Below are positions 538 to 63,257 of a stretch of 64,000 nucleotides of DNA, piece by piece. This DNA comes from an uncultured Verrucomicrobiae bacterium. Lineage in GTDB: Bacteria > Verrucomicrobiota > Verrucomicrobiia > Chthoniobacterales > JAFAMB01. Each line of letters begins with the position of its first letter. The stretch's first letter is position 1. The translations under genes and the position numbers were made by a program. The stretch lies in the NCBI GenBank assembly GCA_963762565.1, contig CAVXLD010000014.1, positions 96,440-160,439 on the forward strand. Direction: 5' to 3'. The notes beneath the pieces were generated by a model that did no database searches, was not told where the DNA came from, and worked only from the letters and a program-made list of their open reading frames with translations.

Positions 538-730
538 GTGATTGGTGATTGGTGATTCGTGATTGGTAAGGTGAGGCTTACGAACAGCCGTTAAGGCTCT
601 TGCGCAGCGCTGCAAACAGCTGAAAAAGGGATAAAAGGTGCGAGGCTCCGCGAAGTGAGCGAGGCTAATCCGCGAGGGTATTAGGGCGGCCCTCCCAATC
701 ACCAATCACTAATCACCAATCACTTCTCAC
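538..730. repeat. Palindromic module with GTGATTG heptamer arms
   Basis: Left arm (GTGATTG/C)x4 at 538-567, inverted arm (CAATCAC/TAATCAC)x4 at 695-730, unique core. Confidence 0.9.
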
Positions 731-770
731 GATTGCCGTTCACCGATTACGGACTACTGGTTACCAACCG

Positions 771-1244
771 ATGCTCACCCTCTATATCCTTCGTCATGCC
801 GAAGCCGAAGCCGAGGCAGGTTCTGATGCCGAACGGGCGCTCACTTCGAAAGGACGCGACCAGGCAAGAACAGTGGGACGTTTTTGTTGTGAGAAAGAAA
901 TCTGTCCGGTGCTTATCCTGACCAGCCCGCTGGTCCGAGCTCAACAAACGGCTAAACTGGTGTGCAAGGAACTAGGGGAAAAAACGAAGCTGGAGACAGC
1001 CGAGTTTTTGTCGGCCGGCATGACCCCGGAACGGGCTTTCGCGCAGTTAAGCAAATTCAGCGGCCCGGGGCCCGTGATGCTGGTTGGGCATGAACCCGAT
1101 CTAAGCGAATTTATCGCCGCCTCGATCGGTGGCGCCTCGGAGAGCATCCGGTTTCGCAAAGCCGGACTGGCAAAACTGACTTTACCTGAGACGAAACCGG
1201 GTGTTGGTACGCTAGATTTTCTTTTGACCCCCAAACTCTTATGA
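771..1244 (+). CDS. sixA: Phosphohistidine phosphatase SixA
   Basis: LYILRHAEA, R-LT--G, TSPLVRAQQTA and LVGHEPDLS motifs; 157 aa. Confidence 0.9.
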   Translation: MLTLYILRHAEAEAEAGSDAERALTSKGRDQARTVGRFCCEKEICPVLILTSPLVRAQQTAKLVCKELGEKTKLETAEFLSAGMTPERAFAQLSKFSGPGPVMLVGHEPDLSEFIAASIGGASESIRFRKAGLAKLTLPETKPGVGTLDFLLTPKLL

Positions 1245-1927
1245 AGCCTGAGATCGTCCGAACGCATTCTTTTGTCCCCGAGGTTGTCCGCTTCATTAAG
1301 GATTCTGCCTCAGAAGCGATCGACTCGCGCGGTTTCTTTCGTATCGCCCTCAGTGGAGGGAACACTCCCCGTCCAATTTATCAAGCGCTCGCCCTTGAGG
1401 ATTGTGATTGGAGAAAATGGATCGTGACTTTCGGAGACGAGCGCTGTGTTACCCCTGACGATACCCAAAGCAACTATCGAATGGCATCGGAATCGTTTTT
1501 GCTGGTTACCAGTCCTGGCGAAGTGGTCCGGATGAAAGGAGAGCTCGATCCGCAGGAGGCGGCAGAAGAATACGACACCGCTATCCAACATCTCGGCAAG
1601 CGATTCGGCGAACAGCGGTACCGGCATGATTTGATCCTGCTCGGCCTGGGAGAGGATGGCCATACCGCCTCGTTATTCCCAGAGACAGCGGCTCTTGAGG
1701 AGACGCAAAAGAATGTGGTGCCCAATTTTGTCCCGAAGTTCAATACCCATCGCCTTACCTTCACCTTTCCTTTGATCAACGCCGCGCGTTGCGTTGCCTT
1801 CGTCATCAATGACAAGACAAAGCAGCCCATGGTGGACCGTGTTTTTGCCGGAAATAGTGGCCTCCCGTCCGAGCGAGTGAAACCTGCCAACGGCGAATTG
1901 CTGTGGTTCCTGGGACAGGGGAGGTAG
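1241..1927 (+). CDS. pgl: 6-phosphogluconolactonase
   Basis: ALSGGNTP, FGDERCV, SNY, LLGLGEDGHTASLFP and RLTFT motifs. Confidence 0.95.
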   Translation: MKPEIVRTHSFVPEVVRFIKDSASEAIDSRGFFRIALSGGNTPRPIYQALALEDCDWRKWIVTFGDERCVTPDDTQSNYRMASESFLLVTSPGEVVRMKGELDPQEAAEEYDTAIQHLGKRFGEQRYRHDLILLGLGEDGHTASLFPETAALEETQKNVVPNFVPKFNTHRLTFTFPLINAARCVAFVINDKTKQPMVDRVFAGNSGLPSERVKPANGELLWFLGQGR

Positions 1928-1940
1928 TGGGAGAAGAAAG

Positions 1941-2068
1941 GTGATTGGTGATTAGTGATTGGTGGTAGGGCGGGGGCCAACTTCAGTTCGTTGGACAATT
2001 GTATCCTAGCGCCGCAGCCAGAGCCGGGGCAGCGGCCAACCAATCACCATTCACTAATCACCAATCAC
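1941..2068. repeat. Palindromic module with GTGATTG arms
   Basis: Arms at 1941-1963 and 2039-2068. Confidence 0.9.
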
Positions 2069-2196
2069 GCTGGACCGAAACGCGATCCATGCTCGTCATA
2101 ACTCACTCGTACCCAACGCCCTCCCAGCTCCCAGATTCTAGCTCGCTACCTCCTCGAATAGTGACTGGCGTTTGAAGTCGTGATAGTCTGCTCCAC

Positions 2197-3055: not shown

Positions 3056-3570
3056 TTCGTAAATGGAAAAAGAAGGCGATCGAATTCTCCCGCATCGAAC
3101 AGATCGAGGCAGAACTTTTAAGGCAAGTACCAGCCTGTTGTGAGCTGGACGAGGGCAGCGCCGGTAAATCCCGGATTTTTCCGGCGCCGGTGGATGCGAG
3201 CGAAGCGGACTTGTTGCGGGATTGGGAGGAGTATGTCCGCCCGGAGTTGCACCATCTTTTCCGTTCTGCGAAGGAGACGGTTGAGGCCGATCTCGCTGGG
3301 CTGAAAATGAAGGTCGGGCATCTGGGGCGTTTCTTAGTTCCTCTGGAACATGGCGAGCCTTGGTTGAATGCTCTGAACCAAGCCCGTCTAATCCTGGCTG
3401 CAAAGTTCGAGTTTTCCGAACGGGAGCTCTCCACCTTCGACCTGCCTCGGACCTTTTCGCAGCGCGAACTTGTGCTCCACCAGATCAATTTCTATGCAGG
3501 CATCCAAGAGCGCATCATTGAAATCCTAACGACGGGAGAAGAGCGGAAGAGCTCCGGGGGAGGTGTGTGA
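3049..3570 (+). CDS. DUF2017-like protein
   Basis: Coupled to clpS; RIFPAP, DWEEYVRPEL and WLNALNQARLIL motifs typical of the clpS-adjacent DUF2017 family. Confidence 0.75.
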   Translation: MLIRKWKKKAIEFSRIEQIEAELLRQVPACCELDEGSAGKSRIFPAPVDASEADLLRDWEEYVRPELHHLFRSAKETVEADLAGLKMKVGHLGRFLVPLEHGEPWLNALNQARLILAAKFEFSERELSTFDLPRTFSQRELVLHQINFYAGIQERIIEILTTGEERKSSGGGV

Positions 3571-3586
3571 GGTCCCCCCCAGAGCT

Positions 3587-3780
3587 GGGAGGGATCGCAG
3601 CCTGTCCGACATAGCCTTCTGTCCATAGTGTCGTGCTTTTCCCACGGTTTGGCGACGTCGGATCCCCGCGATCCGTTGTCACCGAAGCCGAGGACGTGTT
3701 GTGATTCTGGGACGGAAATACATCTTGGGTTCGGGCACGTGCTCGCGGCGCGCGGGGACGCGCGCCCTCCCCGACTTGCA
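3587..3780. repeat. GGGAGGG-ended REP-like palindromic element
   Basis: GGGAGGGATCGC at 3587 and GCGCGCCCTCCCC at about 3760-3772; related copies at 14201, 15921, 36087, 38175, 41385 and 46925. Confidence 0.8.
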
Positions 3781-3881
3781 CCACGCGCCTTGGCGCATAC
3801 GAATCGCTTTTCCTGGTGGCACAGAGATTTTCGCCCTGCTGCCCGTTGACGTCATCCAACCATCACGAGTAACTTCGCCTC

Positions 3882-4355
3882 ATGAGTAAACCCGTCGTCG
3901 AAGTGCATGTCAGGGCGGTTGTTCCGACCTCCGGCGGGTGTGCTGTCTTCGTCGGCAACGATGAGAAGGTCTTTGTAATTTACGTTGATCAAACCGTCGG
4001 CCAGGCCATTACGATGTTCATGCGCGGCGCGCAGAAGGAACGCCCGTTGACCCATGATCTTATGGCCAATATCCTGATGGCGTTGGGAGCGCGGATTGAG
4101 CGGATCGTCATCAACGATCTTAAACGGGGCACCTACTTTGCCCGGATGATTCTGAGTGCCGAGAACGAGCTGCACCAGCGCAAGGTGATTGAGATCGATG
4201 CCCGGCCGAGCGACTGTATCGCCATGGCGGCTCAGCAAAAAGCGTCTATCTACGTGAGTCGCGAGGTCTGGGAAGAGGTCGACGATATGGCGGACGTGCT
4301 CCGCAAAATGGAAGAAGAAGGTTCCAGTCCCGGAGAATCCGAAGAAGAATTCTAA
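3882..4355 (+). CDS. Bifunctional nuclease family protein (DUF151)
   Basis: RPLTHDL and IDARPSDCIAMA motifs. Confidence 0.92.
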   Translation: MSKPVVEVHVRAVVPTSGGCAVFVGNDEKVFVIYVDQTVGQAITMFMRGAQKERPLTHDLMANILMALGARIERIVINDLKRGTYFARMILSAENELHQRKVIEIDARPSDCIAMAAQQKASIYVSREVWEEVDDMADVLRKMEEEGSSPGESEEEF

Positions 4356-6337: not shown

Positions 6338-6566
6338 GGCGTCGTCTTATACTCCGCCTGGAGCTAGGAGCTAGAATCTAGGAGCTAGGAGAGGGCCGTG
6401 GGTGTGCTGAACCGATTGGACTCACTTGGGGAGGTATGTGTCAGATCATATCGGTCCCATCCGATCGCAGCGCCCAGCACGTGCTATCACCCTGAGACGC
6501 CATTATGTCTAGCCGCCCCCTCCTAGCTCCTAGATTCTAGCTCCTGCGGAGTATAAGACGACGCCC
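6337..6566. repeat. Palindromic module with GGAGCTA arms plus 21-bp perfect outer inverted repeat
   Basis: GGGCGTCGTCTTATACTCCGC + (AGGAGCT/AGAATCT)n at 6337-6391; mirror at 6520-6566; lies between convergent genes. Confidence 0.92.
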
Positions 6567-6573
6567 CCCCGCG

Positions 6574-10191: not shown

Positions 10192-10286
10192 AAGCAGTAA
10201 GCGGTAAGCGGTAAGCAGTAAGCGGTGGGTCAGTATTCAGGCCGGGTTCCCGGTTTCCGAAGACTGCTTACTGCTTACCGCTTACT
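10192..10286. repeat. Palindromic module with GCAGTAA/GCGGTAA arms
   Basis: Arms at 10192-10226 and 10263-10286. Confidence 0.88.
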
Positions 10287-10497
10287 ATTCTTTCTGGCGA
10301 GACGGCTATTTCTGCGATTGATTTCGTAGATCCTCCCTCTCAACATCCAGTTTTGGGGGACGGGCGTACTTGAACGCCGACACACGAATGTGTTACCGAT
10401 GTCTTGAAATCCCTCCTATCGCCCCAGTCCTAACCCGATCCAGCGCGATCCTCTCACTTCTCACCAATCACCTCTCACCTCTCACGCCTTCGGTAAA

Positions 10498-10995: not shown

Positions 10996-11014
10996 GGTTC
11001 GCATATCGTTCTCT

Positions 11015-11128
11015 TCTCGTCCTTCCGACTTCGCCAACGCCTGGTTGTGGAGGGCGCCTCGCTTGCGAGGCCGACTTCGAGCGGTAGGCAACATACAGCG
11101 TGCGCTTCGTCGGACAGGCTGTCCTCGA
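11015..11128. repeat. About 110-bp dispersed structured repeat, copy 1
   Basis: TCGTCCTTCCGACTTCGCC...GCCTCGCTTGCGAGGCCGAC...GCTTCGTCGGACAGGCTG; also at 60541-60682 and 62036-62148. Confidence 0.9.
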
Positions 11129-11261
11129 AACGGCTCGGCGCACTTTTCGGCCTAATATTACGCTCGGCATCGAAGAATCTGTAGCCCTGGTGTTGTCTTG
11201 GGTTTTTGGGATCCTCGCCCCACCAGCGTTGACGGTGCTGTCGGCGTTGTTACGTTGGCAG

Positions 11262-11888
11262 ATGGACTCGGTATCCTCCGCCGTCTCCAGGCGTGAATTT
11301 TTGTACGCTGTTGCCGTTGCCGCGGCTCCAGTTGCGTTTCTCTCCCAGGTTCGATCAAGTCTCGCTCAGGATGGCGGCTCCGTGCTTTTGGAGCCTACGC
11401 CGGCGGTTAGTGACGATGATCTCGCAGTGACGCCTAAAGAAACTATCGGCCCTGCTTTTAAACCAAATTCGCCCTTGAAAGATAACTTTCGCGAATCCGG
11501 GGTTACCGGCGTTCTGGTGACCCTAACAGGGTTCGTGCTCAATCGGAAAGGGAAACCAATTAAAGGGGCAGTGCTCGACTTTTGGCACGCTGACGCCGAT
11601 GGCCAATACGATTTTACAGGATTTCGTTGCCGAGGACATCAGTTCAGTGAGGCAAACGGTAGATACGAGCTCCAAACCATCCTCCCGGGCATCTACCCGG
11701 CTAGAACCAGACACTATCACGTCCGGCTTCAAGCTCCACCCGGTCCGATCCTCACGACGCAACTCTACTTCCCTGGCGAACCTCGTAACTCGTCCGATTT
11801 CCTCTTCCGCCGAGATCTGTTGCTGAACGTTCGCGACGCTGATCAGGGCCGCCAGGCTAACTTCAATTTCGTCTTGGAAACCGCTTAG
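11262..11888 (+). CDS. Tat-exported intradiol ring-cleavage dioxygenase-like protein
   Basis: SRREFL Tat motif; DFWHADADGQY, RGHQ, TILPGIYPARTRHYHV, TTQLYFP; start reassigned to 11262. Confidence 0.85.
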   Translation: MDSVSSAVSRREFLYAVAVAAAPVAFLSQVRSSLAQDGGSVLLEPTPAVSDDDLAVTPKETIGPAFKPNSPLKDNFRESGVTGVLVTLTGFVLNRKGKPIKGAVLDFWHADADGQYDFTGFRCRGHQFSEANGRYELQTILPGIYPARTRHYHVRLQAPPGPILTTQLYFPGEPRNSSDFLFRRDLLLNVRDADQGRQANFNFVLETA

Positions 11889-11897
11889 CGTGGAAAA

Positions 11898-12090
11898 GTG
11901 ATTGGTGATTCGTGATTGGTGATTGGTGAAAAGACAGTGTTCCTCGGCGATTTGTTAGTGAATTGGCCCTCGACCCTGTCAGCTCAATCATATCGGCCTT
12001 ATCCTAAACATCCCCGTCCGCAAGGTATCGCTTCCGGGCGCCTTCCACCAATCACCAATCACTAATCACCAATCACCAATCACCTTTCAC
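11898..12090. repeat. Palindromic module with GTGATTG arms
   Basis: Arms at 11898-11929 and 12046-12090. Confidence 0.92.
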
Positions 12091-12188
12091 GGCTCCGCAC
12101 TATCTTTCCCTTGTGGCCGAGCGTCTTAACGAGAAATATCATCGGATCCTTATAAATCACCGTGCCGCCAATAAAACGAACTAAAACT

Positions 12189-13277: not shown

Positions 13278-13279
13278 GA

Positions 13280-13431
13280 ATGACAAATTACAAATGACAG
13301 ATGACAAATCGAGGGTGCATAACGCCGAAAACGCGCGCCATGGTCCTCGATTCTAAATTCTCAAAATCCGCAACCCCGAATTCCTCAATCGGTCATTTGT
13401 CATCTGTCATTTGTCATCTGTCATTTGTCAT
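13280..13431. repeat. Palindromic module with ATGACAA/ATGACAG arms
   Basis: Arms at 13280-13309 and 13392-13431. Confidence 0.92.
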
Positions 13432-13603
13432 AGATAAGCTCCCTCATGCCTCAATCCGACCTATCAAGAACTCCGGAGAACCGGGAGATCAAACAGATCT
13501 CGACTTTGCCGACCGGCGAGATCGTCGCCCTTTGTACCGATAGCACGGTCTGGATCTACGCCGGCAGCAATTGGCGGAAACTGCCAGACCTGGGCGAAGC
13601 GCC

Positions 13604-13774
13604 ATGACAGATGACAAAATGACAGATGACAGATCGCGGCCGCCTAGCGCCGAGAACAGTGAAATGGCCACGATTGCAAATTCTCGAACTCCCGCCCGCA
13701 ACGCTTCGCGTAGCGATGCGGGCGCGGCCTTGAACTCCTGCAACTCCTCAATCTGTCATTTGTCATTTGTCATT
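13604..13774. repeat. Palindromic module with ATGACAA/ATGACAG arms
   Basis: Arms at 13604-13634 and 13751-13774; right arm supplies the stop codon of the DUF4260 gene. Confidence 0.92.
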
Positions 13775-14124: not shown

Positions 14125-14345
14125 GCCGGAGCTTAGAGGCGGCAGAGGATGAATAGCAGATAGCAAATCTGGTGCGAAGGAGCGACGAGGCGCGAACCGC
14201 GGGGAGGGCGCGCGTCCTCGCGCGCCGCGACACGTTCCAGACCTACGGGCGTATTTGATTCCTCGTCTGCCAAACGCGTTCGGCTCCGAGAACAATCCGG
14301 CAGCTGCCAGGCAGCTGCCCATGCGCGTCAAGATAAGGAGTCGAC

Positions 14346-15638
14346 TCATAAAGCTGCGAGTCTTTGAAAGAGGTTGGTTCGATCGGAACGGGAGTCATAA
14401 CGGCAAAAGTAAAAGAAATGTTGGAGCCAGTCTTGGTGAGGGGAAGCGGCAATTAAGGGAAGCAAACGACTCAAATAGGCAGCGATTTTGAGTGGACTGA
14501 GAGCGTTTAGTTCAACGCCCCAAGGCTGAAGGGCAAAAGCGGTCTGCAGCAAGGCAATGGCTAGTAGTTTTGCTAAGAGTTGAATCTGGACCCAGAGTGG
14601 ATTGCGAGCAGGAAGCTGACCGAGCTGAAAATGAGATTTCCAACTTTTGAAAAGCACTTCGATTTGCCACCGAGTGCTATAGACTTCCCAGAGTTGCTGA
14701 GCACTGAGTTGTTCAGGGGTGACGTTGGTTAATAGGATGGTCCAACCTAAAAGTTTGAGATAACGTTTGGTGAGCTTTAGCGAGCGATCTTTTTTGGCGT
14801 TGGCCCGAGCGCGCCGCCGACGCTGAGCGGCTAAGGCTGGGGGCAAGCGCAAAGCCACTAAACGCACCGGGAGTCGCTCTTCGGCGCCTAACAGCAGCTC
14901 GACACTGAGTTGACAATGGTTTTGGACTAAAGCCAAAAGCTCGACCGGCTTTTGAGTTTTGGGATCAAAGAAAACAAAATCGCTGCGGCAGCGACTCAAG
15001 AAATAGGCCCCGGCCTGGATGATCTGGCGCCAAACTTTAAAGACGGCGTAGCCCAAGTCGCGAATGACCAAGTCTCCGGGTTGGAGCAAACTTAAAATCA
15101 AGCTCGAGGCCTTCTGATCGTTGTCGGTCAGGGCACCGAGTTGGAAATGAAGCCAGCTTTGAGAACGCAGTTCAAAGACGGCTTGGATTTTGACGCTGGC
15201 AAGCTTTGCTTGGTGTTGATTACCACAAGCCGGAAAACAACTCGCCAGTCTGGGATGGAGGGCTAAAGCGGTGCTGTCCTGGAGCAAAACTCGGCCGAAA
15301 GGTTCCAACAGCCGACTGGGGCAAGAGCGGTGCATAAAATTGGCTAACAAGCTGGCCAAACAAAGTTGTAGAAAACCTAGCAGCCTTCTGTCGCAGCGCT
15401 GATGCAGAGCTTGTTTAGAGAACAGTCCCGCTTGCAAGGCACTTAATTGGGCCGCCCAGCTTTGGAAAGAATAGGCTGGGTAGCACAGACTCAAGAGGAT
15501 GGATTGAAGGAATGCTTCCAGAGAGAGTTTTTTAGGGCGACGTAAGACAAAACCAGAGCTTCTAGCCAAGGTTTGCAGAGGCAAATAGGAAAAGCGTTGC
15601 AGCATATGATATATAGTATAAAAACTATATATTTGCAC
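14346..15638 (-). CDS. IS4-family DDE transposase
   Basis: LLQDST, IRDLGY and YSTRWQIEVLFKSWKS (YREK) motifs. Confidence 0.95.
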   Translation of the reverse strand: MQIYSFYTIYHMLQRFSYLPLQTLARSSGFVLRRPKKLSLEAFLQSILLSLCYPAYSFQSWAAQLSALQAGLFSKQALHQRCDRRLLGFLQLCLASLLANFMHRSCPSRLLEPFGRVLLQDSTALALHPRLASCFPACGNQHQAKLASVKIQAVFELRSQSWLHFQLGALTDNDQKASSLILSLLQPGDLVIRDLGYAVFKVWRQIIQAGAYFLSRCRSDFVFFDPKTQKPVELLALVQNHCQLSVELLLGAEERLPVRLVALRLPPALAAQRRRRARANAKKDRSLKLTKRYLKLLGWTILLTNVTPEQLSAQQLWEVYSTRWQIEVLFKSWKSHFQLGQLPARNPLWVQIQLLAKLLAIALLQTAFALQPWGVELNALSPLKIAAYLSRLLPLIAASPHQDWLQHFFYFCRYDSRSDRTNLFQRLAAL

Positions 15639-15693
15639 CGCTTTTTTTCGCTCTCTTTCTTGCTCTTTAGAGCGTTAGACTTCTTTCCTAACC

Positions 15694-15885
15694 ATGGGCT
15701 ATCCGGTCAAACTCCAAAAAGTCGATCGTCCCACCAATCGCAGCTTCTATGTCAATTTGCCTGCCGCTCTGGCCGACGCTATTGAACTGGACAAAGGAGA
15801 AGAATTAGAGTGGTTCGTCGAAGACAAAAACACCCTCATCCTGCGTCGAAAGAAACCGACTAAGCCCCTCAAACTCAAGCACTAA
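15694..15885 (+). CDS. AbrB/MazE/SpoVT-like DNA-binding protein (IS passenger)
   Basis: VKLQKV...SFYVNLPAALADAIELDKGEELEW fits the swapped-hairpin pattern; stop codon abuts the TIR. Confidence 0.8.
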   Translation: MGYPVKLQKVDRPTNRSFYVNLPAALADAIELDKGEELEWFVEDKNTLILRRKKPTKPLKLKH

Positions 15886-15982
15886 CTCCTTATCTTGACG
15901 CCTATGGGCAGCTGCCGGACGCGGACGCGATCCCTCCCCCAGCGTTTCCCCGCGTCCCACATTTGCGTCGCTTTGCTATCTG

Positions 15983-16285
15983 CTATTTGCTATTCATTCT
16001 CTCCGCGAGCCACGCGAAGGCGTCTCTCTGCATCTCTTTATCGAACTTGTGTGGGCCGTCATAAAACTGTCCAACAGACCAGGATATCTCTTCACCAGCC
16101 AACCCATCCCGTTTCCAGCTGGTTTCTATCCTGACGTCCTCCGCCGCGGGGTTAGAACTGCTAAATCCGAGAATCTTACGGATTCGTTGCCTCGTCTCTT
16201 CGCCAGGCGAGGCCGCAGGGTACAAGTCCGCTTGTTTTTTCGCGGCCTCAACCCAATCACTATAAATCCCGAGATGAGTTCTCAT
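15983..16285 (-). pseudogene. Internally deleted alpha/beta hydrolase (dienelactone hydrolase/acetyl xylan esterase-like)
   Basis: N-terminal DGLAGEEISWSVG fused directly to C-terminal QFYDGPHKFDKEMQRDAFAWL; no nucleophile elbow; about 100 aa. Confidence 0.65.
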
Positions 16286-16302
16286 GGGTGGTTCTCCGGT
16301 CA

Positions 16303-16477
16303 ATCACAAATGACAGATTACAGATGACAAATTGCTGAACTGTATCGATTCTTAGAACTTCGTTGGTTGAAACGCACGGTTTCGCTCGCCTCGCGCCCTG
16401 GCATAAAGAGCCTTCTTGGACTCCTGCAACTCCTCGAACTCCTCAATTTGTCATCTGTCATCTGTCATTTGTCATTT
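16303..16477. repeat. Palindromic module with ATGACAA/ATGACAG arms
   Basis: Arms at 16303-16333 and 16445-16477. Confidence 0.9.
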
Positions 16478-16565
16478 ATGATTTCCTGGGCCCCTCCTGA
16501 CATAGGGTTGTCACACGCTTGACTAGCTTCGACTGTTCTTGTAGCGACCGATTAGCGTTGTTCAT

Positions 16566-20956: not shown

Positions 20957-21109
20957 ATCCGCAGATTTCGCAGATTACGCAGATTACGGTTTCAGCTTCT
21001 AGTCACACGAAAAGGTAAAACAGAACGCTGGAGGCCACGAACGATGTTTCTATCCCTGGCTAAACTCACCCCTTAATCGAAATCTGCGTAATCTGCGTAA
21101 TCTGCGGAT
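20957..21109. repeat. Palindromic module with CGCAGATTA nonamer arms
   Basis: Arms at 20957-20988 and 21078-21109. Confidence 0.92.
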
Positions 21110-22124: not shown

Positions 22125-22190
22125 AGAAAAAGAATCATGACTGATTACTGACCTACTGCTTACCGCTTACTGCTTACTGCTTACTGACCA

Positions 22191-26543: not shown

Positions 26544-26765
26544 GCCTCGCGCAAAGGACGCGGAGGACGCAACGGATTATTCTTTTAGTCAAGTTCGGCC
26601 GGACGGTTTGCCAGTCGTTTAATGCCGTTCTTAAGATGTTCCTCGCCAAAGTTGATTAGGTATCCGAGACGCAAGTTCGACCCGGTTGTAGCAACCGTCC
26701 ACCTGAGCCTCAATCCACATTATCTCCTTGCCTTCCGTCGCGTCCTCCGGTCCTCTGCGCGAGGC
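26544..26765. repeat. Palindromic module with ACGCGGAGG-type nonamer arms
   Basis: GCCTCGCGCAAAGGACGCGGAGGACGCAACGGA (26544-26576) mirrored at 26734-26765. Confidence 0.85.
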
Positions 26766-26812
26766 TCTGTTTCCTCCCTTAGCTCCTGTTCAAGAGATTG
26801 TACCCTTCCTGA

Positions 26813-31500: not shown

Positions 31501-31616
31501 AAGGAGCCGGACTCCAGAACCCGGGAGGCGCTGAGCGTGCGCTAGCCAAGCTCCTGAGCCTCGTTCGCCCCGACGCCTCCTAGCTCCTAGATTCTGGCTC
31601 CTAGCTCCTAGCTCCT
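31501..31616. repeat. GGAGCTA-family module (degenerate left arm)
   Basis: Right arm CTCCTAGCTCCTAGATTCTGGCTCCTAGCTCCTAGCTCCT; left arm AGGAGCCGGACTCCAGAACCCGGGAGGCG. Confidence 0.75.
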
Positions 31617-32693: not shown

Positions 32694-33037
32694 AACCGCA
32701 GATGAGCGCAGATGATAAGGTCTGGACGCGCAATACGATAGATTGAAACCCGCGGCGGATCGAGCAACGCCACCAAAAACAGGAATGATCCGCAGATTTC
32801 GCAGATTACGCAGATTACGTGCTGAGCTTTGATACGCCCGGCGAGAGAAACAAATCTTTCGTAACCGACACGTTCTCTTTTACCTGGCGGTGCTGGCTAA
32901 GCCCCGCGGACGAAATCTGCGCAATCTGTGTAATCGGCGGATAATTTCTGTCTGTTACACCGTGGTTCGGCCGAGTGACTGATCTCGGTTCAAACGTGTC
33001 ATTTGGTCCCATTCTAAATCTGCGTCAATCTGCGGTT
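32694..33037. repeat. Doubly nested CGCAGAT-type palindrome
   Basis: Outer arms 32694-32713 and 33018-33037; inner arms 32788-32819 and 32911-32942. Confidence 0.85.
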
Positions 33038-33616: not shown

Positions 33617-33685
33617 GGAGTGGTGGAGTGGTGGAGAACTGGAGTGATGGAGTAACGGAGTGTTGGAGTATTGGAGTATTGGAGT
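33617..33685 (+). repeat. Degenerate octamer tandem array (TGGAGTRK)
   Basis: GGAG recurring with period 8 about nine times; no mirror arm seen. Confidence 0.85.
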
Positions 33686-36302: not shown

Positions 36303-38123
36303 ATGAGAACATCCCACAAGCCGCTAAGTCAGAACAAGCATTTGATTCGATGGGTCGAAAAGATGGTAGAGCTTTGTACGCCACAAGCTGTCCATTGGGT
36401 CGACGGTTCTGAGGAAGAGAATGCCCAGCTTCGCGCGCTATTGGTTAAAAACGGCACATTTGTCAAACTGAACGAAGACCTTTGGCCGGGATGTTACTAT
36501 GCGCGTTCAGATGCAGGCGACGTAGCCCGCGTCGAAGACCGCACCTTCATCTGCGCACTCTCAAAGTACGCAGCCGGCCCCACCAATAATTGGGTGGCTC
36601 CGCTCGAGATGAAGAAGACTCTCAAACGGCTTTTCAAAGGGTGCATGGCCGGGCGCACGATGTATGTCCTTCCCTTTTGCATGGGACCGATCGACTCTCC
36701 CATCTCCCAGATCGGCGTTGAGCTGACCGACTCTCCCTATGTGGTCGTCAGTATGCGGATCATGGCCCGCATTGGTATGCCGGTTTATGCCGAGATCGAT
36801 CGGGGCGAGAAACGGGTGGTCCCTTGCATGCATTCAGTAGGTGCTCCTTTGGCCCGCGGTCAAAAAGATGTTCCCTGGCCGTGCAATAAGGAGAAATACA
36901 TCGTCCATTTTCCGGAAACTCGTGAGATCTGGTCCTATGGCTCGGGCTACGGTGGGAATGCTCTTCTCGGGAAAAAGTGTGTCGCTCTTCGGATTGCCTC
37001 CAATATCGCGCGAGACGAGGGATGGCTGGCGGAACATATGTTGATTCTCGGCGTTGAAGATCCGCAAGGTGAGAAAACGTATGTGGCCGCGGCGTTTCCC
37101 AGCGCGTGCGGCAAGACAAACTTTGCCATGTTGATTCCGCCCAAACCTTTCAAAGAAAAAGGCTGGAAGGTTTGGACTGTCGGCGACGACATCGCCTGGA
37201 TCAGACCCGATAAAGAAGGGCGCCTTTTTGCCATCAATCCGGAAACCGGTTTTTTTGGAGTTGCCCCTGGGACATCGGAGAAGACGAATCCTAATGCCAT
37301 GGCGTCTCTATCGAGGAATACTATCTTCACTAACGTCGCTTTAACGCCAGAGGGAGGAGTGTGGTGGGAAGGGATGACCGAAAAACTTCCTGCCCGGCTG
37401 ACCGACTGGCAGGGTAACGAATGGACTCCAGAAATTGCTAAAAAGACGGGGGCAAAAGCCGCTCATCCAAATGCCCGGTTCACCGCTCCGGCCTCGCAAT
37501 GTCCGACAATTGATCCTGATTGGGAGAAACCTGAAGGTGTTCCCATTAGTGCGCTGATCTTTGGAGGACGCCGAGCGACGACCATCCCTTTGATTTTCCA
37601 AGCGTTCAATTGGTCAGGGGCGGTCTATACCGGAGCTACCATGGGATCGGAAATGACTGCAGCCGCAGCCGGTACAGTTGGTAAAGTGAGGCGCGATCCG
37701 ATGGCGATGCTCCCATTCTGCGGTTACAACATGGGCGAATACTTTAGACACTGGATTTCTTTGCAACGAAGTCTGAGCCAGACACCCCGCGTATTCCACG
37801 TCAATTGGTTCCGAAAAAACGGGAAAGGCGAATTTCTCTGGCCGGGCTACAGCGAAAACATGCGTGTCCTGAAATGGATTGTTGATCGAGCCAGAGGACG
37901 CGCGAGGGCCAAAGAAACGCCCATCGGCTGGATGCCTAATTATGAAGACTTGGATTGGACCGGACTCGATTTCTCCAAAGAACGGTTCGAGGAACTACAA
38001 AGATTTGATCGCACGGCCTGGCGTTCGGAAGTAATCGGGCATGAGGAACTCTTTCTCGACTTGCACGAAGGCTTGCCGAAAGAAATGGTTTACGAAAGAG
38101 AACTCCTAATTTGCCGGCTGTAG
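36303..38123 (+). CDS. pckG: Phosphoenolpyruvate carboxykinase (GTP)
   Basis: [54 protein letters not shown]. Confidence 0.97.
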
Positions 38124-38131
38124 CGCGCCGA

Positions 38132-38391
38132 CGTTTGGCGTTCGGCGTTTGGCGTTTGGCGGGCAACCCGCGATGGGAGGGCGCGCGTCCTCGCGCGCCG
38201 CGAACCGGTCTATAATTTTGGACCTAATCTTACGCTGGATCGGGTCTGTCGTGGGCTTCGAGAACAACTGATCGCGAGGACGCGATCCCTCCCCGCGATG
38301 GGTCCGCATTCGAGCACGAGCACGAAACGCCGAACCGCCGAACGCCGAACGCCGAACGCCAAACGCCAAACGCCAAACGCCAAACGCCAAA
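38132..38391. repeat. Palindromic module with GGCGTTT/GGCGTTC arms and nested GGGAGGG REP pair
   Basis: Arms 38132-38161 and 38325-38391; inner pair 38175-38195 and 38273-38293. Confidence 0.92.
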
Positions 38392-38488
38392 CCGCTAGAT
38401 AGCCCCTTTAAGCCATCAACACTATAAAATCGCCACTCCGCACTGCGGCATCGCCGAGGTGAGCATTGCCAGCTAATTGAAATGACTT

Positions 38489-38974: not shown

Positions 38975-39064
38975 GGTAAGCAGTAAGCAGTGAGCGGTAA
39001 GCAGTACAGAAGCCGGCCGGCATCGGCTGCTGACTGCTGACTGCTTACTGCTTACTGCTTACTT
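38975..39064. repeat. Palindromic module with GCAGTAA arms
   Basis: Arms at 38975-39006 and 39031-39064. Confidence 0.9.
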
Positions 39065-39379: not shown

Positions 39380-39388
39380 TGACCGCAA

Positions 39389-39679: not shown

Positions 39680-39697
39680 TAAGATCCCGCCAGAAAG

Positions 39698-41455: not shown

Positions 41456-41870
41456 CTACTCGTGGTAATGCAGTGGTTTCAGATTCTGGACCTCCGTCTT
41501 GCCCTGTAAGTCGTATACGACCTGGAGTGAGGGCTTAAAATGAAGCGGATTTTTCCCCGTGTCGGCTTTGATGTAATAGGTGGCTCCGGCTTGCAGTTTG
41601 AGGCGTTGTTGGGCGGTTGATTCTGTCGTCAGAGTAAACAGGTGGACGCCGGGATTAGCAGATAGCAAATAGGAAATTGAGATGCGCCCCGATGTCGAGG
41701 CCATTATCTTGGATGTCGAAGGTGACGGCGCCGCCTGGAGCGTAGTGAGTACGATAAAAATAGACGGTGGCGAATTTCGGGTTAGGCGCGTGATTCGAAC
41801 TCTGGGGAACCGAAGCGCAGCTAGATAATAAGCACAGAACCAGCGGGAGGAACTTGACTGGTTTGATCAT
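41456..41870 (-). pseudogene. Frameshifted DUF2846-like lipoprotein
   Basis: Lipobox LSSC and ATVYFYR in 41655-41870; ANPGVH...AGATYYIK in 41456-41704; frame switch near 41660-41685. Confidence 0.75.
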
Positions 41871-42167
41871 AGATTGTCGTAACCGTAGGCGGGAGGTTGG
41901 GGGAGTTCAAGGCCTGCCGTGACGTAGGCTTTGCGAAGTCGGGGATTCAAATTTGGTAGGGCGAGGCTCCAGAATGATCCCTGGTTATAGCGAAGTCCTG
42001 GATATTTGGCGGCCGCTCGACGCTGTTACGCCATAAAACGCGCCGAGCCGTGTTCTATCGCTGGCCCCCGGTAACGCCGCACTTGGAATTTGCCCGTCGC
42101 ATCTGCTATTTGCTATTTGCTATTTTGACTATTGCGCTCGTCGTAAAAACAGCGCTAGGTTTTCCCA

Positions 42168-43286: not shown

Positions 43287-43303
43287 GTGTCGCACGCCCA
43301 AGA

Positions 43304-43514: not shown

Positions 43515-43597
43515 CCCTGGACCGATCCTGCACGCTGTGCGTTGGTAAAATTAGCCGGGAGATCGTAAAACAATTATTCTTCCGCAACGACCTTCAC

Positions 43598-45700: not shown

Positions 45701-45768
45701 TGGGCATGACTTCGTTCTCGTTTTTCGAGCGAGGTTGAACGTTGTTGAAGCGTGTGATTGTCCAAGAT

Positions 45769-46047
45769 CTGGAGGGGAGCCGCTTTGGCGCGTATCTCGC
45801 CAGCCTCGCGATATTCGTCTCAACATTAATCTAGCCGGAACCCGTAAGAACAGGCGGCTCCCGGGAACTGCCCCGCGGTTTGCGGCTCGAACTGGCGAGG
45901 CTGTATAGAGAATCCGAAGCGATCAGGGAAATGCTTCACGGTGGGTGATTCCCGGGAGCCGCCTGTTGCGACATTTCTTGGCCGAATCGGGCGCTAAAAC
46001 AAATACCGCGAGGTCGCGAATGACGCGCCAAAGCGGCTCCCCTCCAG
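45769..46047. repeat. CTGGAGGGGAGCCGCTTTG-ended foldback element, copy 2
   Basis: About 99-bp imperfect arms at 45769-45867 and 45949-46047. Confidence 0.88.
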
Positions 46048-46274
46048 GCCCTGGGAACAAAGGCACCGCATCGACGTGCCGGATTCCAGTACGAGGACAG
46101 CGGCTCGACTGAGCCCGCCGAAGTCTTGCCCGACGCCCGTTTTTGGAATTTCGGAGTACTTTTCGATGCCGCTTATGCGGCATCTTCCAGCCCGATTTTT
46201 GCCTCCCGCACTCTCCAGCACCCGAAAACTAGACACTCCTTTAGATGTGTGACCGATCGACGCAAAAAGCGGGC

Positions 46275-53014: not shown

Positions 53015-53436
53015 ATATCCGCAGATTAACGCAGATTACGTTTTTAAGGCCGATAGCTGCGTGGGAGATAAACAGATCGTTCCTAAGAGCGCGGCTTTTC
53101 TACTCCCCGGGCGAACCTTATCCCACTACGAAATCTGCGTTAATCTGCGTAATCTGCGGATATATCAAATCTGCGGTTCGGGTTTTAATCAGGGAGTTAA
53201 AGAAAACCTGGCCCTTAGGAACGATGTGCCTATCTCCCACGGATCAATCGGCCTTGAAACGAAATCTGCGTTAATCTGCGTAATCTGCGGATATACCAAA
53301 TCTGTGGTTCGGGTTTTAATCAGGGAGTCAAAGAAAACCGGGCCCTTAGGAACGATGTGCCTATCTCCCACGGATCAATCGGCCTTGAAACGAAATCTGC
53401 GTAATCTGCGGATATATCAAATCTGTGGTTCGGGTT
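53015..53436. repeat. CGCAGATTA module with 131-bp tandem repeats
   Basis: Units start at 53129, 53260 and 53391 (third partial); 53015-53110 is a diverged inverted copy. Confidence 0.92.
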
Positions 53437-54823: not shown

Positions 54824-55056
54824 CGTTCGGCGTTCGGCGCTTGGCGTTTGGCGTTTGGCGTTTGGCGTGAGCACCTCTGGGCCTAGCCGCGCGATAGCAC
54901 AGAATGCCGCGAGTTCGCGCCGCGACCCAATGGGACTTATATGACCAATGGGACCTATGGGTCATCCTATTAGTCCCATCAGTCCTATAGGCCCCATCCG
55001 CTCGCAGCGCCGAACGCCGAACGCCGAACGCCAAACGCCAAACGCCAAACGCGAAC
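54824..55056. repeat. Palindromic module with GGCGTTT/GGCGTTC arms and inner nonamer palindrome
   Basis: Arms 54824-54868 and 55008-55056; inner ATGGGACTT/ATGGGACCT versus AGTCCCAT/AGTCCTAT. Confidence 0.92.
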
Positions 55057-59038: not shown

Positions 59039-59335
59039 GATAACAGATGACAAATGACAGATGACAAATTGGTCGGGCGTAGAACATTCCTGCGTTGGTG
59101 GGGCGAGGCTCCTCTAAGGCCGAACCTGTTTTGCGAAGCCCGACGTTCTCCACAAATACGGGCGGTGCGACACCATAGCGCCGCCGACTTGTCCGACGTA
59201 GCTCTATCAAGCTCGGAACGGTAGGCCTGTGATTCGGTAGCGAAGTCGGAGCCGTTCACCCTGGCGTCGCGTGTCCCTTATAAGAAGCAATCGTGTTAAC
59301 CATTCTCGAACCCCCAAAATTTGTCATTTGTCATT
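59039..59335. repeat. Palindromic module with ATGACAA/ATGACAG arms
   Basis: Arms 59039-59070 and 59318-59335; REP-like GGTGGGGCGAGGCTCC inside at 59097-59112. Confidence 0.88.
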
Positions 59336-60530: not shown

Positions 60531-60540
60531 AGTCCGTGTG

Positions 60541-60713: not shown

Positions 60714-61913
60714 CTAGCTTCCTCCCTGTTTTGCCTCTGAATCGCCAGGCACAATCTTCGCCGTCATCCCGTTCGCTAAGCTGTCGGATGGATTGAGAAT
60801 TACTTGATCCGTGACGGACAACCCGTGGACAATTTCCAACTTGTCGCCGAGGTCCTCATTGATATCAATTTTTCGGATCTCTACCTTCCCGTCCATACCA
60901 ACCACACCAACGGCAGCGCCTTCGCGCCGGAATATCAGGGTGTTCTCTGGTATCGTGAGGTAAGGAGAATCCCCCTCGAACTTGAATGTGATCTGAGCGT
61001 AGGCTCCCGGAAGCAATTCCCCCGATGCATTCGGAATTTGCAGTTCTGTTAAGAGCGATCGGGACGTCGGATCTATCAGGTCAGCTGTATTGGTCACCTG
61101 CCCTCGAAATATTCGGCCGGGAAACTCAGGTAGGGTCAGCTCTCCCTCCATTCCGATTTTTACTAACTGCGCATACGCCTGCGGTACCTGCACATAAACG
61201 CGTAAGGGCGAGGTCTGAGCTACTACGAAAAGTTGATTTCCTGAGCCGTTGGCGACATAGGTCCCCACATCGACATTTCTCGCAGTAACGATGCCGTTGA
61301 AGGGGGCTCGTAGCACCTTGAAGGCCTCAAGAGCGTTAAGCCGGTCGATGTTAGCCTGGTCGGCAACGACTGAGGCTTGGTCTTCCGCGTAGGTGTCGGC
61401 TGCGGTGTCGCGCGTTTCTGCATCGAGAACCTTCTGACTAAAAAGAGTCTGATCCCGTTCGTAGGTAACCTGGGCCAGATGCGCGGCTGCCTGAGCCACC
61501 TGGAACTGCGCTTTCGATTGGGCCAGCTCCTGGTCGACCTCGGGCGTTTCAATCTCGCCCAGAATGTCGTTAGTGTGCACTTTGCCGCCAATGTCGAAGT
61601 ACCACTTTTTCAGATAACCACTGGTTTGTGCGTAAATCGGCGCCTCAGTGTACGCTTGCGTATATCCCGAGAGCCGCAAAGTACTGCCTCGGGGTTTCTC
61701 TGGATGAACCACACTGACCGTGATGGCCGGTGCGATCTGAGAACTCGGTACGGAAGTTGTCCGTGGAGACGAGGTCAGTTGGTGTCCAATAAATACGGCC
61801 ACGACACCGGCGACGACTCCGCCGCCAACGACCAATCTGCGTGGTTTTTTTGTTTTTTGTGGCGGGACCCGCGGGTCTTCCGCAGCGGTCGCTTTTAAGG
61901 TCTCTGAACTCAT
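60714..61913 (-). CDS. RND efflux periplasmic adaptor subunit
   Basis: AQTSGYLKKWYFDIG, TPEVDQEL, RAPFNGIVT; tandem paralogue of 59331-60530. Confidence 0.95.
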   Translation of the reverse strand: MSSETLKATAAEDPRVPPQKTKKPRRLVVGGGVVAGVVAVFIGHQLTSSPRTTSVPSSQIAPAITVSVVHPEKPRGSTLRLSGYTQAYTEAPIYAQTSGYLKKWYFDIGGKVHTNDILGEIETPEVDQELAQSKAQFQVAQAAAHLAQVTYERDQTLFSQKVLDAETRDTAADTYAEDQASVVADQANIDRLNALEAFKVLRAPFNGIVTARNVDVGTYVANGSGNQLFVVAQTSPLRVYVQVPQAYAQLVKIGMEGELTLPEFPGRIFRGQVTNTADLIDPTSRSLLTELQIPNASGELLPGAYAQITFKFEGDSPYLTIPENTLIFRREGAAVGVVGMDGKVEIRKIDINEDLGDKLEIVHGLSVTDQVILNPSDSLANGMTAKIVPGDSEAKQGGS

Positions 61914-62016
61914 TCTCGCTCCACAATCCTAGTGTTGTCCGCTCGCTGCCGCTATTGCAGGAAGGGGTTCTTTATACTAACCCGAACGGGTGATTCTGGC
62001 GGATCTCGCAGAGAGC

Positions 62017-62234
62017 TTCGTTCTCGTTCTCGTCGTCGTCCTTCCGACTTCGCCAGCGTCCCGGTTGTGGAGCGTGCCTCGCTTGCGAGGCCGACTTCGA
62101 GCGGTTGGCAACATAGAGCAAAGGCTTCGTCGGACAGGCTGTCCTCGACTTCGGTGCGCGTGTTTTGTGACATCGGTGCTGCTTGAACGCCTGATCGAGA
62201 ACGAGAACGAGGACGACGACGAGGACGAGAACGA
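62017..62234. repeat. Hexamer-armed (TCGTTC/GAACGA) palindrome containing copy 3 of the 110-bp repeat
   Basis: Left TCGTTCTCGTTCTCGTCGTCGTC; right GAGAACGAGAACGAGGACGACGACGAGGACGAGAACGA; repeat copy at 62036-62148. Confidence 0.85.
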
Positions 62235-62300
62235 TTCCTGCTAAGACGCCCCTTGTAGCTCCTAGATTCTAGCTCCTCGCTCCTGTCCATTTGCTATTTG

Positions 62301-63017
62301 CTATCTGCTGTTTGCTATTCTGGATTGCTGACCAATCCAGCTCGGCACCGGTATTGTACGCCTTCTGGTGGGTTCCGCGGGCGTTTCCGTCGCGTTCAAG
62401 CCACCGGTCGTTTCAAGCCAATCGGCGATATAATTGACTTGTTCGTCGAGCGAGTAATCGGTGACGTCGACCGTTAAGCTCGGGATAACCGAGTCCATCA
62501 CTAACTCTTGCAAGATCTTTTGTTCCCTGATGAACAGTGTCAGGTCGTCGTATTGTGAAGGATTACTCGAGACCTGTAGCCGGCGTTTCCGTGCTTCAAC
62601 GAAAGAGTTTGGGTCCCTCCAGCAGAACACCACTCGAAATCCAAGCGCAACCAGACGGGACTCGAGCCATTCGAACCGATAACGCCGTCCTCGATACATC
62701 GCTTGCCACATTTGAGTAGAAAGGTGGAAACGATCAATGATCCAAGAGTAATATCGATAAAGCTCAAAGAGACTGACCCAAAGTCGATAGGCTTCCATAG
62801 CGGGTTGCTCGTACCTCGCGTCGAAGTTGACCAGACTACAGCCATAGGGATTGCGGGTGAAACCATTCCATTCCGCGGACACAATTGGCGAATGATAACG
62901 ATATTTTCTGACGCCGGTGATTCGCGGACTCTCGTTGAGAGCTAGCGCCAGATCTGTCTTACCAGTGAGTCTAGTGCCCTCCAGGATCACTTTCGGGCAC
63001 AGTTTTATTACCGGCAT
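62301..63017 (-). CDS. P-loop protein, thymidylate kinase-like fold, function unknown
   Basis: ILEGTRLTGKT Walker A-like motif and IIDRFHLS motif. Confidence 0.7.
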   Translation of the reverse strand: MPVIKLCPKVILEGTRLTGKTDLALALNESPRITGVRKYRYHSPIVSAEWNGFTRNPYGCSLVNFDARYEQPAMEAYRLWVSLFELYRYYSWIIDRFHLSTQMWQAMYRGRRYRFEWLESRLVALGFRVVFCWRDPNSFVEARKRRLQVSSNPSQYDDLTLFIREQKILQELVMDSVIPSLTVDVTDYSLDEQVNYIADWLETTGGLNATETPAEPTRRRTIPVPSWIGQQSRIANSR

Positions 63018-63097
63018 CTCTAACCCTAACCACGCCCGGCTCTGCGCTCCATTGTACTAAAGTATAAACGCTAGTGACCAGGAGGAGCTATCTTGAG

Positions 63098-63257
63098 GTG
63101 ATTGGTGATTAGTGATTGGTGATTCGTGAACGGGGCGCTGGGGAGCGACCTATTTGAGAGCAGGTCACGCTATCAGCCCTATAGGACGGATAGGACTTAT
63201 GTGAGGACGGCGAATGCGCTCTCACCTCCAATCACCTAATCACCTCTCACTTCTCAC
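63098..63257. repeat. Palindromic module with GTGATTG arms
   Basis: Arms 63098-63129 and 63219-63257; right arm supplies the stop codon of the kinase gene. Confidence 0.88.

Follow-up and report, generated by a model that had tools for sequence, protein, structure and literature searches.

The stretch of DNA considered here, called the window throughout, comprises 64,000 nucleotides of a soil Verrucomicrobiota genome (C14:96440-160439 of G000, a 94%-complete assembly of 6.12 Mb in 15 contigs) and is scattered with palindromic modules lying between protein genes, each consisting of a short array of tandem units, a core and the same array in inverted orientation. The earlier note on this DNA had claimed one such arm-core-inverted arm architecture realised with many different units, and this description stands, as array detection with Tandem Repeats Finder (84 rows in the window) places paired arrays at nearly all of the coordinates concerned and an inverted-repeat scan recovers the same window pairs. 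The paired arrays (left/right) are listed at 538/695, 1940/2039, 11898/12041 and 63097/63222 for GTGATTG, at 13279/13388, 13604/13754, 16302/16446 and 59043/59319 for ATGACAR, at 10192/10263 and 38976/39027 for GCAGTAA, at 6360/6520 for GGAGCTA, at 38132/38325 and 54824/55008 for GGCGTTY, at 20960/21081, 32791/32914 and 53020/53132 for the nonamers and at 62018/62196 for the hexamers. Three modules were confirmed by eye only, namely the GGAGCTA module at 31501..31616 with its decayed, degenerate left arm (right arm 31577-31616), the ATAGCAR module at 14152..15994 with arms at 14152-14168 and 15972-15994, and the module at 26544-26770 with arms of approximately three units.

Modules built of the unit GTGATTG are located at 523..745 (arms 538-567 and 695-723, core 127 nt), 1940..2068 (core 74 nt), 11886..12102 (core 111 nt) and 63097..63257, the right arm of the last being a mixture of CAATCAC and CTCTCAC units. 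ATGACAR modules occupy 13279..13431 (core 78 nt), 13604..13774 (119 nt), 16302..16484 (~109 nt) and 59043..59335, where the core of 249 nt includes the end of a family-A-type repeat (letters A to E denote other palindromic repeat families of this genome). Further heptamer modules carry GCAGTAA at 10192..10286 (core 36 nt) and 38976..39063 (20 nt), GGCGTTY at 38121..38397 (~163-195 nt) and 54824..55056 (~139 nt), GGAGCTA at 6340..6565 (arms 6360-6391 and 6520-6545, core 128 nt, with an outer inverted shell CGTCGTCTTATACTCCGC) and ATAGCAA at 41656..42125 (core 426 nt with a partial family-A palindromic repeat). A hexamer module, TCGTYC/GARGAC, is found at 62017..62234 with half a family-D repeat in its core of ~162 nt. 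Nonamers form the module at 20957..21109 (CGCAGATTA, core 92 nt) and the one at 53015..53410, which consists of a module proper (53015-53160) followed by a tandem duplication of its right part, the 131-bp unit being repeated 2.2 times at 96% identity between 53128 and 53410 and duplicating the right arm with part of the core. At 32694..33035 two modules are nested, a nonamer module at 32791-32939 being enclosed by decamer arms at 32697-32715 and ~33016-33035.

Genome-wide, 4479 merged arrays were found, among them 1542 heptamer arrays in 181 unit classes. When the 3712 arrays of period 6-10 were compared with neighbours at a distance of at most 400 bp, with strict same-unit pairs scored as inverted or direct, 432 pairs were inverted and 14 direct, next to 342 pairs of unrelated units and 696 of different period, whereas 200 shuffles of label and strand gave 20.0±4.9 inverted pairs with a maximum of 40. 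The paired arrangement is hence confirmed as real and far beyond chance, and does not reflect randomly scattered solo arrays. Strict pairs take in only 861 of the 3712 arrays, many others being solo, degenerate or decayed, or split by nested elements. Polarity is nearly fixed within a family, with ATGACAA first in 49:0 pairs, GGTGATT in 29:0, AGCTAGG in 28:0, ATAGCAA in 25:1 and the nonamer in 22:0. Such fixed polarity follows from the palindromic build, since a gene on either strand of a module sees the same unit array upstream and its complement downstream.

The length of the arms is similar across periods, ~27-36 nt, with medians of 27 nt for period 6 (median 4.5 copies), 31 nt for period 7 (4.4 copies, with a sharp mode at 4-4.5), 36 nt for period 8 (4.0 copies), 29 nt for period 9 (3.2 copies) and 27 nt for period 10 (2.7 copies), and the two arms of a module are complementary at 91% of the aligned positions (10094/11102). 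The order of unit variants, said beforehand to differ between arms, is largely common to the arms of one family; ATGACAR arms are a nearly fixed block of ~31 nt, and the GTGATTG arms of the window have GTGATTA/TAATCAC at the same position as a copy elsewhere in the genome that bears a four-helix-bundle gene (C11:15941-16552), the variant order of which is matched by the arm of the module at 1940..2068.

The statement that cores are mostly unrelated likewise requires correction. Of 387 cores of at least 25 nt, 126 group in 17 clusters of other repeated palindromic elements with their own ends, and core-to-core BLAST gives 852 matches between different unit families versus 143 within the same family. 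Cores often contain such nested palindromic repeats, and heptamer modules nested in other heptamer modules also occur; the core of the ATAGCAR module at 14152..15994 is a nested palindrome GGGAGGG...CCCTCCC, itself split by an insertion sequence (IS). Bracketing by arrays applies to 28 of 223 complete copies of family A, 9 of 45 of family B, 11 of 171 of family E and 3 of 80 of family D, the baseline being the 4.7% of intergenic bases that cores make up. In the CGCAGATTA family the core length is fixed (86-96 nt in 17 of 22). Most unit families lack conserved sequence beyond the arrays. The ATAGCAA family possesses a small outer hairpin whose loop, TCGCCTTAGGCTC, is conserved and whose stem covaries, the same variant of it being present at both ends of one element.

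Two small gene families between the arms

The search for modules with an open reading frame (ORF) in the core, proposed as a check in the earlier note, proved decisive. Genome-wide, three gene families were searched, yielding 12 matches to Y1 transposases (five of them strongly matching small genes), 14 to GxxExxY proteins (TIGR04256/PF13366) and 9 to four-helix-bundle proteins (TIGR02436/PF05635). By a scripted rule that asks for a gene between inverted arrays of the same period, six of seven four-helix-bundle genes are bracketed by 6-8-mer arrays and five of ten GxxExxY genes by 8-10-mer arrays, compared with 140 of 20000 random 321-bp segments (0.7%). The association was also found from the opposite side: when modules of correct polarity with a core large enough for a gene were listed without bias, four-helix-bundle (7) and GxxExxY (4) genes alone recurred among the small genes; the other cores of that size hold ordinary genes enclosed by two adjacent modules, or spurious ORFs that belong to nested repeats.

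The four-helix-bundle genes have arms of AGCAGTA, GTGAGAA, GGTGATT, ATAGCCA, TCGTCC or the octamer TGGAGTGG (21-27 copies), and the arms of the GxxExxY genes include the nonamer of the window module at 20957..21109. Gene-bearing units are also units of abundant gene-less families (strict pairs: GGTGATT 29, GTGAGAA 15, AGCAGTA 18, ATAGCCA 20, TCGTCC 20). Besides the GTGATTG copy on C11, gene-bearing copies with the same unit exist for the window modules at 10192..10286 (C5:442948-443489) and 20957..21109 (C1:643910-644429), and the hexamer type of 62017..62234 flanks the four-helix-bundle gene C5:382068-382597. A solo octamer array in the window (TGGAGTRT, 33617..33685) is of the unit type that flanks the four-helix-bundle gene C7:440889-441842, where the arms comprise 21.6 and 27.2 copies, an expansion well beyond the usual ~4.

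The proteins match PF05635 with E-values down to 1e-28 and PF13366 down to 1e-41, as well as TIGR02436 and TIGR04256. For the four-helix-bundle protein, which shows a weak match to bAvd (PF22296), the nearest solved relatives are 2RLD and 2GSC with five chains each, and this protein is not known to have a catalytic site. Sequence search gave no solved structural relative of the GxxExxY proteins, the D...ExK motif of which is kept in the four that were inspected. PADLOC defence-system libraries gave no notable match, except for a Cas4-like one at E=0.003. The gene of the GTGATTG cassette has its start codon 5 nt past the arm, and many 5' arm units, in this genome and at the cross-phylum loci described below, contain AGGAG or GGTGAT, which resemble ribosome-binding sequences; the arm stem would hide them. 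Reverse transcriptases (RTs) have only four matches in the genome, one of them intact, and none was seen in or beside the compact cassettes, so that retro-mobility by an Avd-RT pair was rejected.

In the window itself no four-helix-bundle gene was found. The single weak tblastn match, 44 residues at 31687-31818 (E=0.001), lies outside any module and inside another ORF and was treated as chance. That no candidate enzyme is encoded in the window holds insofar as only a 23-residue GxxExxY remnant (26612-26680) and an unrelated IS4-like transposase are present. The window modules are, for want of the four-helix-bundle gene, gene-less relatives and not full members of the type known from ribosomal intervening sequences (IVSs).

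The same arrangement extends to relatives and to other phyla. Among 41 genomes of the bacterial family, 38 have a four-helix-bundle match and 30 a GxxExxY match. Bracketing was found at 28 of 36 four-helix-bundle loci (7-mers 18, 8-mers 8, 6-mers 3, 9-mers 1), and approximately 13 of 20 further loci of the same genus, judged by eye, have arrays of the same period on both sides, several of the others being situated at contig ends. For GxxExxY, the strict rule is satisfied at 13 of 39 loci (9-mers 10, 8-mers 2, 10-mers 1), and most of the remaining ones are flanked by an 8-11-mer array on at least one side, with units that share a CRCARA core. In a search across phyla with one clade of 11 four-helix-bundle proteins as query, 55 of the best 80 loci are bracketed (7-mers 42, 8-mers 6, 9-mers 3, 10-mers 4), a count that holds for that clade only; 21 more have arrays that were not scored as a pair, either because only one side carries an array or because the arrays of the two sides differ in period or unit. 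Among the hosts are Nostoc, Calothrix, Prevotella, Bacteroides, Acidobacteria, Planctomycetes, Nitrospirota, Clostridia and Peptococcaceae. Overall, an array adjoins the gene at 130 of 136 four-helix-bundle loci.

Protein clades map to unit types at these loci. Among the 130 loci with an adjacent array, where two units were counted as alike if a circular word of 5 nt or more occurs in both, 90% of the pairs with at least 80% protein identity agree (52 pairs from different genomes), a fraction that falls to 38% at 60-80% identity, to 28% at 40-60% and to 7.7% below 40% for proteins of different genomes, and is 1.8% for the 55 paralog pairs below 40% identity within one genome. As unit sharing tracks protein identity and paralogs in one genome differ, it is the cassette and not the host that sets the unit. 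Contrary to what had been supposed, the sequence of the arms is thus not free, since the unit goes with the protein clade inside the module, in different phyla as well as among paralogs of one genome. The architecture is shared because many families of a single element type reside side by side in the genome, and not because some process writes arms of arbitrary sequence.

A separate observation concerns the four-helix-bundle proteins L038 (G000) and L071 (G034, of another genus), which are nearly identical and have the units AGTAAGC and AGTAAGG, one base apart; their near-identity in hosts of different genera suggests recent transfer.

Derivation and turnover of the gene-less modules

The notion that the modules are non-autonomous elements is borne out by the behaviour of the window modules, which is that of non-autonomous relatives of elements with an ORF. 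The module at 26544..26770 aligns with a GxxExxY element on C11 through both arms and both inner flanks, while ~290 bp of the gene are missing and 23 codons on the minus strand are kept at 91% identity. Judged by this alignment it is an internally deleted GxxExxY element and a clear deletion derivative; the other nonamer modules of the window have arms only. In the nonamer module at 53015, the right part matches the gene-bearing C1 copy over 59 nt at 83%, extending ~28 nt past the array into the inner flank.

Gene-bearing and gene-less states also occur at one and the same site. The shell and the AGGAGYY arms of the module at 6360-6545 recur at the orthologous site in the sister species G002 and G005, and in G005 a second left arm with an intact four-helix-bundle gene connects to the resident right arm; different repeats, without shell and arms, occupy the site in G003 and G004. 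That the core of 6360-6545 is a deletion product of the G005 gene was considered and rejected, the core being homologous to an older core common to G002 and G005.

Turnover was followed in 11 gene-anchored spacers of four species of the same genus (G002-G005), the genes of which are ~76-87% identical. The modules are not fixed and identical across relatives, as 32 species-by-spacer comparisons gave the same or a related unit in 13 cases, another unit in 11 and no array in 8. Arrays are present in all four sister species in the spacer of the module at 523..745, with the same unit in two and AGTAATC in two. In spacer 11889-12161 all five species have a GTGAnnn module, with GTGATTG, GTGAGAR or GTGAGAC as unit and unrelated cores. 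The ATGACAR module at 13279..13431 has the same unit and an alignable core in three of four sister species. At 13604..13774 an ATAGCCA module occupies the site in G004, and at 54824..55056 a GTGATT-type module does so in G003. The module at 41656..42125 has no counterpart array in the three comparable sister species. At the site of the nested pair (32694..33035) 9-10-mer palindromes occur in all four species, with other units in three, the gene-anchored spacers of 198-401 bp being filled with palindromes of this kind.

Inversion between arms was observed as well. A conserved 53-codon ORF (13446-13607, plus strand), without family match in profile searches, lies between TGTCAT and ATGACA arrays and is ~78% identical in the four sister species; in G005 it is inverted relative to its neighbours and flanked by long inverted repeats.

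Homology between module copies ends sharply at the module borders, which supports dispersal as units, and composites of arms plus core have been copied whole, as in four GGCGTTY modules that are 85-92% identical with their cores included. In public soil metagenomes contigs break at the arms, and one contig of run X3 has one extra ATGACAG unit at 13603, weak evidence of variation in unit number. Many contig joints at arms would be compatible with excision; as their sides measure only 22-32 nt with unknown letters between them, they most likely stem from other copies of the family and were not used as evidence. The same applies to a joint 14230-15917 that would remove the IS, with a side of only 22-23 nt. 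In the one RNA run considered, 5% of the sampled words were present.

Interpretation and alternative explanations

The window modules probably belong, as miniatures without a gene, to two related kinds of palindromic cassette, which at full length would consist of a small gene within two arms of ~30 nt, the 5' arm (in gene sense) being made of tandem units and the 3' arm of the inverted array. The first kind would combine a four-helix-bundle gene (TIGR02436/PF05635; the 23S rRNA IVS protein, distantly Avd-like) with 6-8-mer arms, and the second a GxxExxY gene of the PD-(D/E)XK family (TIGR04256/PF13366) with 8-10-mer arms. One architecture with many units results from each protein clade having its own unit and many clades residing in one genome. 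Loss of the gene would leave arms around a short or foreign core, which would then gather palindromic repeats and ISs. By analogy with the IVS of Coxiella, module transcripts may fold into a stem of ~30 bp cleavable by RNase III.

Spread and homogenisation of the families may proceed mainly by recombination between arms, which would serve as portable homology with breaks arising at the hairpin. Repair of such a break from another family member might copy cores or genes and keep the arms uniform. The arrangement in G005, with a second left arm and a gene on the resident right arm, as well as the replacement of units at fixed sites, fits arm-homology repair. In the nonamer class the encoded putative nuclease (GxxExxY) may itself make the breaks, and the pentameric four-helix-bundle protein may bind its own repeat arms.

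Several observations weigh against this interpretation. The most abundant families, namely ATGACAR (49 strict pairs plus 12 of an ACAGATG variant), ATAGCAA (26) and GGCGTTY (9+8), have no gene-bearing copy in the 94%-complete assembly or among 56 four-helix-bundle loci of the bacterial family, and for GGAGCTA (28 strict pairs) a gene-bearing copy exists only in relatives. The association is weaker for GxxExxY, because arms of only ~3 units are near the detection limit. Related genomes are non-independent samples in the comparison of units and proteins, and their co-variation can, as far as sequence comparison goes, be explained by co-inheritance of gene and arms alone without binding. Neither a target-site duplication nor a cleavage site was found for the cassettes; around four families the flanking sequence revealed no consistent duplication, the nonamer case being ambiguous as its border is a palindromic AT or GATC. 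Identity between modules of different loci does not exceed 91.6% and is mostly 70-80%, so that the families are old dispersed units that give no indication of recent activity in this genome. In some modules position and unit have persisted since the genus diverged, which also fits a host function. Finally, a targeting of hairpin centres by the other nested repeats was rejected, as their enrichment inside arms is only mild.

A more far-reaching proposal is that S23p/Avd-like pentamers and putative GxxExxY nucleases read their own arms and, together with host break repair, constitute a mobile system without transposase whose units evolve in concert. This proposal is speculative and at present doubtful. 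If true, it would bring under a single explanation the heptamer microsatellites of bacteria, such as the cyanobacterial short tandemly repeated repetitive (STRR) sequences and the GGGAATC arrays of Xanthomonas, the rRNA intervening sequences and the nested palindromes found here.

Among the alternatives, the one that retains most weight, unlikely on its own and compatible with the cassette interpretation, is that the modules are hairpins selected by the host as terminators, mRNA stabilisers or RNase III sites, with stems repeated by slippage and genes as passengers. It would account for the conservation of site and unit across species with genes ~78% identical, for arms that are better preserved than cores, for the common arm length across periods and for the change by one unit in a metagenome contig, and 83% of the Xanthomonas GGGAATC arrays keep their gene context between two species (PMC4692102). 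On the other hand, module frequency is similar in all types of spacer of at least 80 bp (convergent 13.1%, tandem 10.1%, divergent 9.1%, based on crude gene calls), a nearly flat distribution that argues against a dedicated terminator role, and the terminator reading was rejected on this ground. Wobble indicative of selection at the RNA level is not strand-biased, with 130 sense versus 104 antisense transition mismatches (p=0.10, not significant), a result that likewise lends no support to an RNA-level role of the stem in the cassettes. Nor do host hairpins readily explain that orthologous sites have the unit replaced in 11 of 32 comparisons and the array missing in 8, that the unit follows the clade of the enclosed protein across phyla and that copies end sharply at module borders.

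Less probable still is that the arms are repetitive extragenic palindromic (REP) sequences of resident REP-associated tyrosine transposase (RAYT) genes, the modules being REP doublets forming hairpins (REPINs) moved by these Y1/HUH enzymes. The genome does encode five small Y1_Tnp genes, the modules are inverted doublets able to form hairpins, and the end hairpins of ATAGCAA with their conserved loop and covarying stem resemble REP sequences. None of the five genes, however, has an array of period 5-12 within 700 bp, and none of ten frames above the family cut-off has a flanking array pair, which does not support RAYT/HUH proteins as the partner enzyme that had been suggested. Arrays bracket four-helix-bundle and GxxExxY genes instead, and the lack of conserved sequence outside the arrays in most unit families is equally at odds with REP sequences.

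A dedicated enzyme that adds repeat units de novo on both sides of arbitrary sequence, the writing process initially invoked, would agree with the uniform arm length over periods, with the often unrelated cores within a family and with unit-number variation, which exists in the contig mentioned and is also reported among Coxiella strains (PMC4990558), but is highly improbable in view of the fixed order of unit variants per family that is common to the gene-bearing copy, of the clear deletion derivative and the arm-plus-core composites copied whole, and of the lack of any candidate polymerase in a genome with so few RT matches.

Heptamer arrays such as STRR sequences, the GGGAATC arrays of Xanthomonas and those of the Coxiella IVS have been known for decades without a partner protein or a route of spreading. 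In the present case the arrays sort into families, each of which belongs with one clade of either of two small proteins, and the gene-less modules are probable derivatives of gene-bearing cassettes. With respect to consequences, the modules break short-read assemblies, occupy a large share of the spacers and alter promoter and terminator regions between close species.

Known systems and other repeats of the window

Cyanobacterial STRR heptamers and small dispersed repeats of Nostoc are abundant intergenic heptamer arrays. They resemble the arrays described here in this respect and differ in the host, which is a soil Verrucomicrobiota bacterium; four-helix-bundle genes of Nostoc and Calothrix were found between inverted heptamer arrays.

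In the openly accessible literature, to which the survey was directed with subscription journals mostly outside its scope, no paper was found that joins these protein families to paired arrays. The closest parallels are two papers that touch portions of the pattern. The 23S rRNA IVS of Coxiella burnetii is described as a selfish element of 428-444 nt, of unknown origin according to the authors, with a terminal stem of 28 bp in which RNase III cleaves (PMC4990558). Three tandem GACAGAT heptamers and a degenerate fourth precede an S23p ORF in the loop, the number of heptamers varies among strains, and the insertion replaces the tetraloop of a helix (PMC4990558). The same paper cites the S23p protein of X. 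campestris as a toroidal homopentamer. Tandem heptamers and a stem are common to both systems, GACAGAT being a rotation of the ATGACAG of the window, and the heptamer arms found here (median 31 nt, interquartile range 27-35) are long enough for a stem of ~28 bp. Terminal inverted repeats and tandem heptamers of the IVS type are thus present in the window modules, whereas a PF05635/TIGR02436 ORF in the loop is absent. The modules further differ in their position between protein genes instead of rRNA and in comprising many unit families with dozens of copies each; the Coxiella paper describes neither a general rule of heptamers on both arms nor gene-less dispersed copies.

In the Xanthomonas species X. 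campestris and X. citri, each genome has 70-75 cases in which GGGAATC arrays on opposite strands converge as pairs able to form stem-loops (Rehm et al., PMC4692102). That study, concerned with quadruplex formation, reports a gene context mostly kept between the two species and a function that is not known, finds no link to mobile elements and makes no mention of S23p (PMC4692102). Convergent pairs of intergenic heptamer arrays are present in the genome considered here as well, yet in Xanthomonas they have one G-rich unit that is not linked to any protein, whereas here arrays are tied to two gene families and the main units GTGATTG, ATGACAA, ATAGCAA, GCAGTAA and GGAGCTA are devoid of runs of three or more G.

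REPINs are dispersed in spacers as non-autonomous inverted doublets able to fold into hairpins, and their repeat also flanks a protein gene present in a single copy (PMC3116915); in concept they come closest to a hairpin doublet that lacks a gene and has one partner protein. In the present genome, the flanked gene encodes a four-helix-bundle or PD-(D/E)XK-family protein and not a Y1 protein, none of the five small Y1_Tnp genes being flanked in this way, and the arms are tandem repeats and not one imperfect palindrome. Nor do the modules qualify as IS-derived MITEs (miniature transposable elements with inverted repeats), as their ORF-bearing relatives encode four-helix-bundle or GxxExxY proteins and not a transposase. 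The Avd protein of diversity-generating retroelements belongs to the same four-helix-bundle superfamily, with weak matches to PF22296 and NF033474; the scores of 43.9 and 28.4 bits fall short of the equivalog cut-off of 80 bits, and no RT is found nearby.

Other arrays and repeats are dispersed over the window. Solo arrays occur at 10450..10485 (CCTCTCA, detected by Tandem Repeats Finder and complementary to the GTGAGAR type) and 22140..22186 (ACTGCTT, 6.6 copies), and two adjacent solo right arms, of CTCCTAG and TTTGCTA type, are located at 62245..62319. The IS that splits the ATAGCAR module (14310-15916) is an IS4-like element of 1.6 kb with DDE_Tnp_1, a 430-aa ORF and the ends GGCAGCTGCCCATGCG. 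Besides this copy the genome holds three complete ones and a partial one, at 96-99% identity. Of the four complete copies, two are embedded in the GGGAGGG...CCCTCCC palindromic repeat and one borders an ATAGCAA module.

A palindromic MITE-like element of 290 bp at 39388-39680 has many copies of 78-93% identity (most of them at least 83%) in all four sister species, and two copies of the family-E palindromic repeat, with the ends CCTGGAGGGGAGCCGCTTTGG and 171 complete copies genome-wide, are situated at 43298-43520 and 45762-46054. The 124-bp repeat at 11006-11129 has at least four other genomic copies (90-94%) and copies in relatives (75-90%); its summed depth in soil-metagenome contigs is very high, and the spacer measures 231 bp here versus 88 and 104 bp in G002 and G004. 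In three soil runs, the summed contig depth of the bins 3336-4002 and 6004-6670 is 20-50x that of neighbouring bins, which points to highly repeated short elements at these positions, one of them near 3600-3780.

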